DNA of 64,000 nucleotides. Origin: Yuukianura sp. NJ FZ-2021 (taxonomy: Eukaryota). The position numbers and the translations under genes were made by a program. A model generated the notes under the pieces. It did no database searches, was not told the origin of the DNA, and saw only the letters and a list, made by a program, of their open reading frames with translations. Location of the stretch: NCBI GenBank assembly GCA_046563655.1, contig CM102287.1:2976001-3040000 (forward strand). Direction: 5' to 3'. Each line of letters starts with the position of its first letter. Positions within the stretch are counted from its first letter, which is position 1. Shown one piece after another: positions 1,962-11,016 of this stretch.

Positions 1962-3974
1962 ATGACTCTCACAACTGAACAAATTGTTCCCCAGGGGGAG
2001 AACATCCACAAAAAATCAGAGCAGTACATCATCGAAAAAGACACGCAAAAACAAATCTCAGTTGCTGAAAATGAAGATTTCATTCTCTTCGGAGCTGGAC
2101 CAGCCAAGTTGCCGAAGGAGGTACAAATTCACAAATTTCCAAAATTCAAAACTTCAAAATTTTGAAAAACTTTAATTTCAAAATGTTTTGTCCAGGTCCT
2201 TCGCAAAATCCAAACTGAACTGATCGACTACGCTGGAACTCATCAAAGCATTATGGAAATCAGCCACAGATCACCAGAATTCATGGCTGTCAACAACGCA
2301 ACTATTCAAAAAGCCAAAGATTTACTGTGAGTTTCAAAAATTTCAAAAAGTTTACATTCTAAAATTGTCATCTTTTGAAAAATTGTTGAAAAATCATCGG
2401 AAATTTTCAAAATAGAACAAGATAAAAGATAAACTTAAAATTTCCATGAATCATACCACGACTTGATCACGCCATGCAGAGGTCAAAGGTCAAAAAACAT
2501 TACATCACTTGTTTGCTTGGCCCACTTCTCTTTTTCATTTTTATCTCCTTCTTTATCGAAAAGCCACACCTCCGAAAACTCAAAATTTCAAGTGTTTTCA
2601 CACTTTCGAAAAGTCAAAATTTTGAGTATTTTTTTGTTTACTTTTCCAGGAATATCCCAGAGAACTACAAAGTGTTGTTCATGCAGGGCGGTGGGACTGG
2701 CATGTTTTCAGCCATTCCGATGAACTTGATTGGGAAGACGGGTAAGGCTGACTACGTGGTGACTGGGTCGTGGTCAGCCAAGGCAGCGAAGGAGGCGCAG
2801 AAGCATGGAACAGTCAATGTAGTTTATCCCAAACAATCCACGTATGGCTCCATCCCCCACGAGGACTCGTGGAATCTGGACCCAGAAGCAGCCTATGTCT
2901 ACGTCTGCGCTAACGAAACGGTCGACGGAGTGGAGTTCCAAACGATTCCAGAGACTCATGGAGTTCCTCTCGTAGCTGACATGTCCTCAAACATCTTCTC
3001 CAGACCCATCGACGTCGCAAAGGTAACACGCCACGCACGTTTTATGCTAAAAATTTCTAGGTCGAAATTGAATTTCTGAAAAAAAAGTTATTGCTTTCGG
3101 TAGAAAGTGTGGAGATAGATGGTTGACCTTTGAACTTTCGTTTTTTTTAGTTTGGAGTGATTTTCGGTGGAGCTCAGAAGAACATTGGGCCGTCGGGAGT
3201 GACGATCGTGATAATTCGTGAGGATTTGATGGGGAATGCCCTTAAGTACACGCCAACAGTCTTTGACTTTGCCACCATCGCCAAGGACAACTCACTCTAC
3301 AACACGCCACCAAGCTTCGCGTAAGTTCACCCAACAAATTTTGACCTCGGTTGACCTCAAAGCCGCAAATGCTGACCCACTTTCAGTGTTTCTCAAATGC
3401 TGACCATGCACAGTAGAAAAAAAGTCCAAGTTTTGAGACAAGAGTTGAGAGGATTTTGTGTCTCAAAATGAAGACTTTTTTTCCACTGTGCCCTGTTTCT
3501 AAATGTTGAAATGCTTTCCCAGTTTGAAAATGTGTTTGAAATGTTGATGTGAATAATTTGAAAACGTGTTTGAATGTGTTTGACTGTAGGATCTACGCGA
3601 TGAACCTGGTGTTTGACTGGATCCTTGCTAACGGAGGTGTTGAGGAGATGGAGAGTCGTGCGTTGAAGAAGAGCAGTTTGCTGTACGAGACGATGGACAA
3701 GTCGAATGGCTTCTACATAAACAGTGTCTCCCCAGAGTGTCGGAGTCGCATGAACGTTGTGTTCCGAATCAAGAATTGTGAGGAGCTGGAGAGTGCCTTT
3801 GTGAAGGAGGCCAAGGCCCAAGGGCTCCTGGGACTCAAGGGCCATCGCTCAGTCGGAGGCATAAGGGCCTCCATCTACAACGCAGTGCTCCCTCAACATG
3901 TCCAGAAATTGGTCGATTTCATGATCAAGTTCCAGCAAAAACATCAAAGTGAAAAGGGAACTGAAAAGTGCTAA
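1962..3974 (+). CDS. PSAT1: Phosphoserine aminotransferase (PLP-dependent, class V)
   Basis: Exons 1962-2120, 2196-2326, 2650-3022, 3151-3320 and 3590-3974, all GT-AG and in frame. Hallmark motifs [56 protein letters not shown] (PLP Lys), [20 protein letters not shown]. Confidence 0.97.
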
Positions 3975-7436: not shown

Positions 7437-8941
7437 TCAAGCTTGTATGCAGCCTTGGTTCACAAGGAAGTCCCTCACTGCATATACTTTACTGTAAACA
7501 CCTAAAAAAATAATTAATGATTAAAATAAGTTAATTAATTAAGTAGTACTGGCTCAAACTGCAGACATACCTGGAAATCCTGGTCTTGCGCATCTAAAAA
7601 AAAGTTTTCGGTTAATTTGAAATTCAAAGCAACACCATATACTTCTACTTGAATTAATTGAGCTGCTAACTGCGAATTAATTATTGGCATATAATTAATT
7701 TATAATAAATTAATTCCAGACAGTAGCCTTACCCTGCTCCCCACGAAACAATTCCAGCTAGAGCACCATTCTGCACCAATGGACCACCACTGTCACCTAA
7801 TTAACAGTTTAATAAGGGTTACGATGGTTACACATCACAAGGGTTACGATGGTTACACATCACAGAGGTTACGATGGTTACTGTTACCTTGACACGAATC
7901 CTTGCCCCTTGCACCGGCGCACAACATTGCGTCCGTAAGTGCTCTGCCGTAGGCCCTGCGACAAACGACGTCGCTCTGAACAGTTAGTTCTGCATATAAC
8001 AAGTCGCGGGACGATGAACCTCTCTCCCTTACTTTACCTATATTAATTATTATATTAATTAATTGTATTAATTAAATAATAAAACAATTTAAATAAAATG
8101 GTCACATGGCACAATGTAAACCTTACCCCAACCGGTGATGATGGCAGGTCCATTGGGAGTGGGAGCGACCTTGGTGACATTGACAGGTCGAGTATTGGGG
8201 GTAAAGGTCAAGGGGTCACGGGTGACCTTGAGCACTGCAATGTCATTGTTGTACCTGGCTCCTTGGAAGTACTGCGGATGAACCACGGCAGAATCAACTG
8301 CAGTCCAGCGACAGTTCACATGCAGATCGGTACAACCACTCAAAATGTATAACCCACTTGTGGATTGTTCATAACTAACAAAATTAAAACTTATTTTATT
8401 ACTATTTAATTACTTTTTACTAATATTTTAATCTTACACATCCTTGACGCAGTGCTGAAATTCAAAAACAAAGAGTCAGAATTCTGGTTTATGGACAGAA
8501 CTTGGACAAAATTGAAGGTCAATGATCTGGACTAAGGTTGAGGTCAATGACCTTGACTAAAGCAAAGGTCAATGACCTGGACTAAATTTGAGGTCAATGA
8601 CCTCTGGTGACCTTACGGCTGCAGTGACAATGCAAGTACTAGAGATGATGGATCCTGCGCAGAATTGGTAGTAGAAACCATTGGGCGATCTGCCTACAAG
8701 AGCAACTTGGTATGGAAATTGTCCAGCTTTGGCTTTTATTCCTCCAACCACTTTCCCATCCAATCGTTTTCCAGAAATTTCAGGTTCAGGGTCATCGCAA
8801 ACTGGAAATTAAGCAACAATAAATTTGTTTGGAACTGCTTTTCAAAATTTTGGAAAACCTTGGAGAAGAAAAATTGTGCTTACCACATGAGTTTATGAAC
8901 AAGAAACAAAAAAGGAGAAAGTGGATTTTCACTTTTTCCAT
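7437..8941 (-). CDS. Trypsin-like serine protease (S1A), paralogue A
   Basis: Eight exons (8941-8884, 8801-8617, 8454-8438, 8374-8127, 8037-7888, 7796-7733, 7593-7571, 7501-7437). Signal peptide, K|VVGG activation site, TAA|HC, NDIAVL, KDSCQ|GDSGGPL (Asp189 trypsin specificity), VSWG, C-A-R-P-G-F-P-GVY. Confidence 0.93.
7815..7881. repeat. Intronic minisatellite, ~26-bp unit (GGTTACGATGGTTACACATCACA), about 2.6 copies
   Basis: Direct repeats are visible in the trypsin A intron between the DSCQ and GDSGG exons. Confidence 0.85.
8516..8603. repeat. 25-bp tandem repeat x4, each unit with an AGGTCAaTGACCT IR-1 palindrome
   Basis: AGGTCAATGATCT at 8516; perfect AGGTCAATGACCT at 8541, 8566 and 8591. 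Confidence 0.9.
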
Positions 8942-9253
8942 TTTTTTTTTCGAAAATGTAAAATTTTATGCTCGTGTTGCGTTGCAAAAACCAAATGCAA
9001 AGAACAACACCTTGACCTTGTATTAAGTAAGGAAGAGAACCACAAGAAATATGGAATGTGCTGATCAATGTTAAATTGTAAATTAAATATTCTGAATTTT
9101 AATGACGCACTATTCCTCAGAAAAAGTGTGGCAAGGAATTTAGTGAATTTTGAAACTGATGATGTCAGTGATGGAAAGTAACAAACGAATTATAAATTTT
9201 GATTTCATGTTCAAAAATTAAAAAACTACAATTAAAAACTCATTTCTTCCAAA

Positions 9254-11016
9254 TCAAATGCAGTTTTGTTTCTTGAGGAAGTCAGTAAAGTAGGAAACTT
9301 GAGTGTAGACTCCTAAAGATCCAAAAATCACGATTACATCAAAATTTTGAAAACTATGTCATCGTTCTTTTTTAATTCAAATTTACCTGGATATTCTTTT
9401 CTGGCACATCTAAAGAAGTTGAAATTTTGAAAAAAGAAAGTTATGAAATTAAAAAAAAGTGTAACTAAAATTCTTAAAATCGAATCAATCGTTTTAGGCT
9501 AAATCTTACCCGTATCCCCATGAAACAATGCCAACCAACTTCCGCTCAGTTCCAGAACCAGCCACAAGTGGACCACCGCTGTCACCTATGTCAAGGTCAA
9601 GGTCAAAGGTCAAATTCAAGTCTGGATTTCAAACCTATAGTACTAATAGTAGTTTTTACCTTGACATGAATCCTTTCCACCCTGATCAGATCCTGCGCAG
9701 ATCATGGAATCAGCGATTTCCTTTTGTCCATACTTTGCTCGACACTCAGCGTCAGTAATAACAGGGACTTCCGTATACAGCAAATTGTCTGACAAATCAC
9801 CCATTTCCTCCATTGTTCCTGCAAAAAACATAATAAAATATGATAAAATATAGTATAAATATATGAATACATAAATATATTTAAAAGTATTTGAAGTTTC
9901 TCAACTTACCCCAACCAGAAACAGTGGTCAAAGTGCCTGCCGGTGTCTGGGCTTTGTCCTTGGCCACTGGAATAGCCTTAAGTTGGTCCGTGAAGGTGAC
10001 GAGGTTAACTAATTTAATAACTGCAATGTCATTGTACACAGTTGAAGAGTCGTAGGCTGGATTCACCGTGATTTCTTTCACTGCAAGTGCAGTGCCGTCC
10101 AGCGTCAAAGATCCACCTACAACAGACAGCGACCCGGCACTGCGACTACAAATACAAAAAAGTTAAAATTAAAAAAAAAATCGAAATTTTGACCTTGATT
10201 TTTAAATTTTTTGATTTTTGATAGGTTCATCCTCACCCTTCGGCACAGTGCTGTTTGAAAAATCAAAAAAGAAATTCAGTTATGATTTAATTACGAACAG
10301 ATCCGAATGATGAAAGCTCGACTCAAGTTAAATTCAATTGGAAGTTAAATGAAGTTAAAATCAGTTAAAAATCAGTTGAAAGTTAAATCAGTGGGTTAAA
10401 ATTAAGTCAAAATCAGTTAAAATTAAGTTGAGATCAGTTACAAAAGGTAGTCTAAATTATTGAAAATCAGTGAAATTAAAACTTACAGCAGCAGTAAATT
10501 CGGAGTTATGACATAACCTCTTACGCCATTTTAGTATAAATGGTCGCTCTAGCAACGTTGGCAGCAGTTACAACACAGTTACAAGTTAAATCAGTTAAAA
10601 TTAAGTTAAAATCAGTGGAAATAGGTTAAAATTAAGTTAAAATCAGTTAAAATAAGTTAAAATTGAACTTACACCAGCAGTTACAACACAGTTATGTGAA
10701 ACTAGAGTTCCGCCGCAGAAGTGATGATAGATTCCAGTGCTTTGTGATTTAGTTTGGAGCGATACTTGATACGGCAACTCTCCTTTTTTCGCAGCGATTC
10801 CACCCACGATTCTGTCACCATCCTGCGCATGGAATCTCAACTGAGTAGAAAGCGATTCTGGAAGGAAAGCTCCAAGTGCTGAAAAATGTTCAAATTTTGA
10901 AACGAACTGAAATTTTGAATGAAATTTTGAAAAATTAAGAATTTAAAATTCAACTGACCTAGTTGTGGCACAAACCAGAGCACACCCAAAACCAAAAACT
11001 TTACAAAATGTTGCAT
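9254..11016 (-). CDS. Trypsin-like serine protease (S1A), paralogue B
   Basis: Eight exons (11016-10959, 10878-10673, 10250-10237, 10145-9910, 9818-9660, 9585-9510, 9409-9387, 9312-9254) with the same intron positions as paralogue A. R|IVGG, FCGG, VTAG|HC, NDIAVI, KDSCQ|GDSGGPL, VSWGYG|CARKEYP|GVYTQV. Confidence 0.93.
10325..10668. repeat. Degenerate AT-rich ~10/20-bp repeat (AAATCAGTTA / AAATTAAGTT) filling trypsin B intron 2
   Basis: Many imperfect copies of aaatcagttaaaattaagtt. Confidence 0.75.

Follow-up and report, generated by a model that had tools for sequence, protein, structure and literature searches.

The catalytic histidine of two tandem trypsin genes lies on predicted microexons of 14 and 17 nt

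Two tandem trypsin genes on the minus strand of the window (7437-11016) encode the catalytic histidine, His57, on exons of only 17 nt in gene A (8454-8438) and 14 nt in gene B (10250-10237). The window is the whole stretch of 64,000 nt that was analysed (contig C5:2976001-3040000 of a 98.7-Mb genome in 22 contigs), and its numbering is used throughout. The set of proteases in the genome, and the one protein match with a name, indicate an arthropod. Both exons lie exactly where a preliminary description of this DNA had placed them, bounded by AG and GT, and both are confirmed as parts of a genomic gene model. They are probably constitutive, motif-coding microexons of a known kind, left between two close introns in a very intron-rich gene family, and not switches. 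This reading is built on the gene structure, the reading frame, and the intron map of the family, and under it constitutive inclusion, intron definition, and enzymatic activity would be expected.

Each gene consists of eight exons. The seven introns occupy the same positions in both, and all are of the GT-AG type. In gene B, exon 1 (10959..11016; 58 nt, phase 1) contains the ATG and the hydrophobic leader, and exon 2 (10673..10878) carries the propeptide, the Arg/IVGG activation site, and Cys42, ending in phase 0 with Thr-Ala-Gly. Intron 2 (10251..10672; 422 nt) leads to the microexon (10237..10250), which supplies His57 and Cys58, and is entered in phase 0 and left in phase 2. The remaining exons provide Asp102 (exon 4, 9910..10145; 236 nt), Asp189 (exon 5, 9660..9818; 159 nt), Ser195 and Gly216 (exon 6, 9510..9585; 76 nt), Cys220, on a second microexon (exon 7, 9387..9409; 23 nt), and the coding part up to the stop codon (exon 8, 9254..9312). 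Gene A follows the same plan, with the ATG and the hydrophobic leader in exon 1 (8884..8941; 58 nt, phase 1), and the propeptide, the Lys/VVGG activation site, and Cys42 in exon 2 (8617..8801), which ends in phase 0 with Thr-Ala-Ala. Its microexon (8438..8454), with His57 and Cys58, is likewise entered in phase 0 and left in phase 2, and is followed by exon 4 (8127..8374; 248 nt) with Asp102, exon 5 (7888..8037; 150 nt) with Asp189, exon 6 (7733..7796; 64 nt) with Ser195, a second microexon with Cys220 (exon 7, 7571..7593; 23 nt), and the coding part of exon 8 up to the stop codon (7437..7501).

When the microexons are included, the spliced translations give complete frames of 269 aa in gene A and 276 aa in gene B, which are identical at 109 of 227 aligned residues (48% protein identity). 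Each product has a hydrophobic leader, a putative signal peptide on the grounds of its hydrophobicity, and a propeptide that ends in Arg or Lys ahead of the mature N-terminus. In both genes, exons 2 and 4 score above the Pfam cut-off for PF00089, exon 2 corresponding to profile positions 1-41. The triad His57-Asp102-Ser195 is complete in both translations, within the motifs TAAHC, DIA, and GDSGGP, with Gly replacing the second Ala of TAAHC in gene B, and both translations also contain Asp189, Gly216, and Gly226, the residues named for the trypsin pocket in PMC2678069. Pseudogene status is ruled out for both genes by the presence of canonical splice sites everywhere and by the intact frames. 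As part of the same account, and with the same probability, genes A and B would be tandem, active S1A trypsinogen genes, the activity being predicted from the translations. No near-identical protein was found in the protein libraries for exon 2 of gene B (two of 26 candidates matched, the best at 63%) or for its exon 5 (seven of 11 candidates matched), and for its exon 4, none of the 150 matches listed of 189 exceeded 48% identity.

The frame itself constrains what can lie between exons 2 and 4. The TAA and TAG with which exon 2 had been described as ending are the residues Thr-Ala-Ala (gene A) and Thr-Ala-Gly (gene B), and not stop codons. Given that exon 2 ends in phase 0 and exon 4 opens in phase 2, the intervening segment must be 3n+2 nt long, and the lengths of 14 and 17 nt, correctly described as not divisible by three, are both of this form. 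Stop-free, frame-restoring AG-GT segments of up to 60 nt number nine in gene A and seven in gene B, and exactly one in each gene, that at 8454-8438 and that at 10250-10237, opens with the codons of His and Cys. The two microexons differ in length by one codon, with the phase and the His-Cys pair being maintained. Our own spliced profile aligner, run with a profile composed of P0001 and the ORFs of 86 other regions, none of them from the window, placed both microexons with single-base accuracy, under generic as well as trained splice scores. When the microexon and the intron on each side of it were dinucleotide-shuffled, a frame-restoring segment of the form AG-His-Cys...GT arose in 23 of 5000 cases for gene A, and again in 23 of 5000 for gene B, which rules out a chance AG/GT segment as the explanation. 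Read-through of either of the flanking introns is ruled out by stops. The two exons are thus microexons as predicted from the DNA, that is, internal exons of no more than 27 nt with canonical splice sites, which complete the frame.

The intron map of the S1A family places these exons in context. A PF00089 profile search of the genome gave at least 174 matches (150 of the 304 candidates were scored, and 150 matches were listed), and the family set comprised the 86 regions around the listed matches outside the window, together with the window. The 109 gene models obtained were reduced to 103 unique models of at least 100 bits, 102 of which span His57, and to 94 S1A models once copies more than 90% identical had been collapsed. 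These models are predictions, among which one clear error was found, and the search is most prone to miss genes split into very short exons. The earlier statement that the TAAHC motif is as a rule encoded without interruption holds only loosely, as 36 of the 94 models have an intron inside the five codons. Across paralogues, introns occur at nine different offsets around the His57 codon, from -6 to +5, which suggests repeated gain or sliding of introns in the most conserved motif.

Two of these positions are common. An intron lies exactly ahead of His57 in nine of the 94 models, and 23 have a phase-2 intron 8-26 nt downstream, counted from the first base of the His codon. In vertebrate S1A genes, the exon boundary after His is also in phase 2, a few codons past His-Cys. 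Both introns are found together in three models (gene A, gene B, and L078b, one of a pair of tandem genes in another S1A region), with 2.2 being expected. The mapping of intron positions across the family that had been proposed earlier therefore shows the two common positions coinciding about as often as expected. The His57 microexon of L078b is 14 nt long (C2:6929389-6929402; L078:4522-4535) and is preceded by another microexon, of 25 nt (L078:4415-4439), the pair spanning C2:6929282-6929402. The paralogue L117 has its His on an exon of 26 nt.

Short exons of other kinds are also present in the family. Internal exons of at most 27 nt occur in 17 of the 94 genes, and the 23-nt Cys220 exon is flanked by the same two intron positions in gene A, gene B, and the paralogue L071. 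Lengths divisible by three are found in four of 23 exons of up to 27 nt vs. 75 of 229 exons longer than 51 nt. The introns have a median length of 87 nt, and 94% do not exceed 250 nt. Internal exons of up to 17 nt are nevertheless fewer than random intron placement would give (11 of 328 vs. approximately 40), as are those of up to 27 nt (29 of 328 vs. approximately 61), and an intron no more than 15 nt upstream of the His is combined with one 8-26 nt downstream in four of the 94 models vs. 10.2 expected (Fisher p=0.004, with genes that are not independent). This scarcity of short exons and of close intron pairs indicates either that the arrangement is not cost-free or that the search misses such genes.

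Searching the genome with exon 2 of gene B gave 28 matches, 27 of them inside the window or the 86 regions. A loose pattern for the end of exon 2 matched 362 times in the genome vs. 395 in the control, with no signal. The two microexon patterns gave one and ten matches in the genome (two and eight in the controls), of which only the exon of gene A lies in an S1A gene, the 14-nt pattern being too strict to match gene B or L078b. In the metagenome scan, none of the 597 candidate stretches matched exon 4, and six of 435 matched exon 5, all distantly; one of these six is intronless, three have a contiguous motif, and two do not cover the motif or are not modelled at it. A gene in the L085 region, with a model devoid of His, was considered as a fourth His microexon and rejected as an aligner error, since its His-Cys actually opens a long exon.

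The relationships of the three genes point to more than one origin. Genes A and B are sisters in the FastTree analysis (0.89; 106 rows) and in a 26-row tree (SH-aLRT 89), and in a 41-row tree, A, B, and L112 are not separated. L112 has neither of the introns around His57, and L122 contains the same five residues as the microexon of gene B inside an exon of 516 nt. The grouping of A and B with L078b was rejected by the AU test (p-AU 0.0003; quick tree, LG+G4, 26 of the 106 rows, for a group set by trait after a first tree had been seen), and the microexon of L078b appears, on the strength of this p value, to have arisen separately from that of A and B. L078a, the gene in tandem with L078b, shares the intron ahead of the His, and the next exon, of 147 nt, has the same four opening residues; in L078b, the exon that opens with those four residues is cut at 14 nt. 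This comparison indicates that the microexon is the remainder when both introns are present, and the pair provides a clean, small case of how the gain and loss of introns can create or remove a microexon. The trees obtained here do not tell gain from loss, and the order of these events is inferred.

The probable course of events would then be as follows. In the common ancestor of A and B, two introns would have lain 14-17 nt apart, the first in phase 0, directly ahead of the His57 codon, and the second in phase 2 and a few codons beyond His-Cys, as in many S1A genes, with the DNA between them becoming the microexon. We infer that practically every productive transcript contains this microexon, and that its short flanking introns are most likely recognised across the intron, in which case the length of the exon would matter little. 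These introns measure 162 and 63 nt in gene A, 422 and 91 nt in gene B, and 82 and 90 nt in L078b, and PMC8378409 describes intron definition as the default where introns are short. RNAs in which the microexon is skipped or an intron retained, if they are made, would be unproductive errors.

The preliminary description had gone further, and proposed that splicing of the microexon could act as an on/off switch. Its premise holds, given that skipping the microexon removes the catalytic His and shifts the frame, leaving products of 82 aa (gene A) and 126 aa (gene B) with early stops, which lie 479 and 377 nt, respectively, ahead of the last junction, far enough upstream to suit a mechanism in which decay of the skipped RNA turns the trypsin off in some tissues or stages. 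The switch itself finds no support, however, because a frameshift results from skipping any one of five of the six internal exons, and skipping the sixth costs the enzyme its Asp189. In silico, the skipping of any internal exon ruins either enzyme, so that lethality does not single out the microexon. Other observations also weigh against the switch. The microexon is absent from close paralogues, and three cases in 94 are explained by two common intron positions coinciding. The flanking introns are short and the exon lengths are not multiples of three, and the exons skipped in animals are disproportionately 3n and flanked by long introns (PMC6142364). There is no UGC in the 25 nt ahead of the microexon in either A or B, and no excess of UGC was found ahead of small exons in the exon models of the family (five of 29 vs. 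46 of 299). A UGC near the 3' splice site is a mark of SRRM4-type microexons, and digestive trypsins are already under transcriptional and zymogen control. In favour of the switch, the donors of the microexons in A and L078b are weak, the arrangement seems to have arisen at least twice, and a 9-nt motif-coding mini-exon of potato invertase is reported to be skipped in the cold (cited in PMC3340406 and PMC8483784). On this evidence, regulated skipping is very unlikely.

Among the closest known systems is the 9-nt mini-exon of the plant invertases (Glyco_hydro_32N), which encodes the DPN of the beta-fructosidase motif, and in which, as in A and B, a few bases supply a core motif of an enzyme. 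Motif-coding microexons of plants are described as usually included and as often missed by annotation (PMC8831610, PMC3340406). The invertase mini-exon differs in being 3n, in its conservation throughout the family, and in the reported skip induced by cold, whereas those of A, B, and L078b are non-3n, restricted to three of the 94 family members, and variable in length. The 4-nt exon of MPC1 (PMC9929638) and the constitutive class of Drosophila (PMC8042270) are, like the exons of A and B, short and essential for the frame; the MPC1 exon relies on strong exon-defining elements in its introns, whereas A and B have short flanking introns. The neural microexons dependent on SRRM3/4 share the length class of up to 27 nt (PMC8378409), but are mostly frame-preserving and tune neural proteins, whereas the exons of A and B, at 14 and 17 nt, depart from the frame-preserving length expected of that type, shift the frame if skipped, lack the upstream UGC, and belong to secreted trypsinogens. 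In the human tissue kallikreins, His, Asp, and Ser are located on coding exons 2, 3, and 5 (PMC3707919), so that these genes, like A and B, spread the triad over separate exons, with an exon boundary between His and Asp; in A and B, by contrast, an added phase-0 intron ahead of His57 isolates His-Cys on an exon of its own. No paper on a His57 microexon was found among the matches listed in searches of the open-licence literature.

The strength of the splice sites was scored with a crude matrix derived from 205 donors and 208 acceptors. The microexon donor scores 0.3 in gene A (16th percentile), vs. 3.6 for the upstream donor, and -0.1 in L078b (10th percentile), vs. 2.5 upstream, and equals the upstream donor in gene B. 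By the same matrix, the microexon acceptor is stronger than the neighbouring one in A, where it reaches the 85th percentile, and in L078b, and weaker in B. In Drosophila, the 5' sites of constitutive microexons are stronger than those upstream of them, and of 411 internal microexons, 283 (68.9%) show some skipping and 128 are constitutive (PMC8042270).

Decoy donors are found in the upstream introns of both genes. In gene B, the region 10440-10700 (minus strand) contains a tandem duplication of the end of exon 2 and the start of intron 2, with an exact repeat of 20 nt (10562-10581 and 10675-10694), the second copy being split by approximately 70 nt that are apparently flanked by an 8-nt direct repeat. 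As a result of this duplication, positions 10524 and 10486 are decoy donors. In gene A, most of intron 2 is made up of a 25-nt tandem repeat (region 8500-8624), several copies of which have weak donor-like sites. Such decoys would favour a reading in which the microexon is meant to be constitutive but slowly or leakily spliced, with a sizeable, unregulated share of the transcripts retaining introns or using decoys. Retention of either flanking intron introduces a stop within a few codons and would halt translation there, and the microexons of plants often have detained flanking introns (PMC8831610). Against this, the microexon sites of gene B are of average strength (33rd and 47th percentiles), and such leakiness is given a very low probability.

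Gene A has, in addition, a weak alternative donor at 8611 (8606..8611), 5 nt inside intron 2, which, when joined to the acceptor of exon 4, is predicted to give an in-frame protein devoid of the His. A catalytically dead isoform, a decoy resembling a serine protease homologue, could be produced by this path alongside, or instead of, the active form, as the path is open, in frame, and costs only 4.4 bits, and the donor at 8611 scores much like that of the microexon itself (0.2, at the 14th percentile, vs. 0.3). Human kallikreins, for example, have many annotated isoforms without triad residues (PMC3707919). The much stronger donor (3.6) located 5 nt upstream nevertheless argues against its use, as does the fact that donors opening with GTCA, as at 8611, are only 19 of 419 in other models. 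Trypsins have a disulphide between Cys42 and Cys58, and the bypass would leave Cys42 unpaired. Gene A also keeps His-Cys behind its strong acceptor, and gene B has no comparable path, as a single-intron bypass that stays in frame would have to combine an acceptor within exon 4 with a donor no higher than the 9th percentile. A dead isoform is, like leaky splicing, quite improbable.

Regulated splicing of the microexon in either form, whether through skipping and decay that silence the trypsins or through donor 8611 toggling active and dead forms of gene A, is unlikely. Regulated and leaky splicing taken together amount to about one in five, in view of the scarcity of short exons, the weak donors, the decoys, donor 8611, and the precedent of the potato invertase. 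If regulation does occur, the separate 14-nt His exon of L078b would represent convergence on one control point, and the demonstration of regulation would establish a splicing switch on the catalytic residue of a protease, of a kind not found among the matches listed in searches of the open-licence literature.

The microexons also matter for annotation. The risk of mis-annotation raised in the preliminary description is supported by simulation with our own aligner, in which masking the microexon yielded full-length, in-frame models without His, at a cost of only 4.4 bits in gene A and 20.6 bits in gene B. In plants, wrong gene models are documented to result from missed microexons (PMC8831610), and a survey of the family files sequences without TAAHC as inactive homologues (PMC4676143). 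Given the in-frame bypass at 8611, mis-annotation as an inactive homologue is plausible. Counts of active proteases and inactive homologues in intron-rich arthropods depend on finding TAAHC, and if an exon of 14-17 nt is missed, an active trypsin passes for an inactive homologue, without a frameshift to betray the error.

A number of minor observations were made in the window and in the family. An ORF at 3540-3971 of the window (plus strand) matches the C-terminal part of aminotransferase class V (PF00266). From 24000 to 64000, the plus strand shows a skew of G over C of 0.2-0.4, sustained over 40 kb, with GGGG occurring 94 times on the plus strand vs. 29 on the minus strand, and there are few long ORFs, two of which were scanned and had no Pfam match; this region probably represents the long introns of one large gene on the plus strand. 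Near-identical S1A copies are found far apart or on different contigs (L078, L108, and L109; L105, L106, and L107; L113 and L114), with branch lengths of 0-0.02, and may be either recent duplications or assembly redundancy. In the third gene of L085 (C3:3634277-3643262), an insertion of approximately 1.3 kb in the intron ahead of the His exon has, by eye, terminal inverted repeats of 20 nt and an 8-nt target duplication, and looks like a non-autonomous element of the hAT type.
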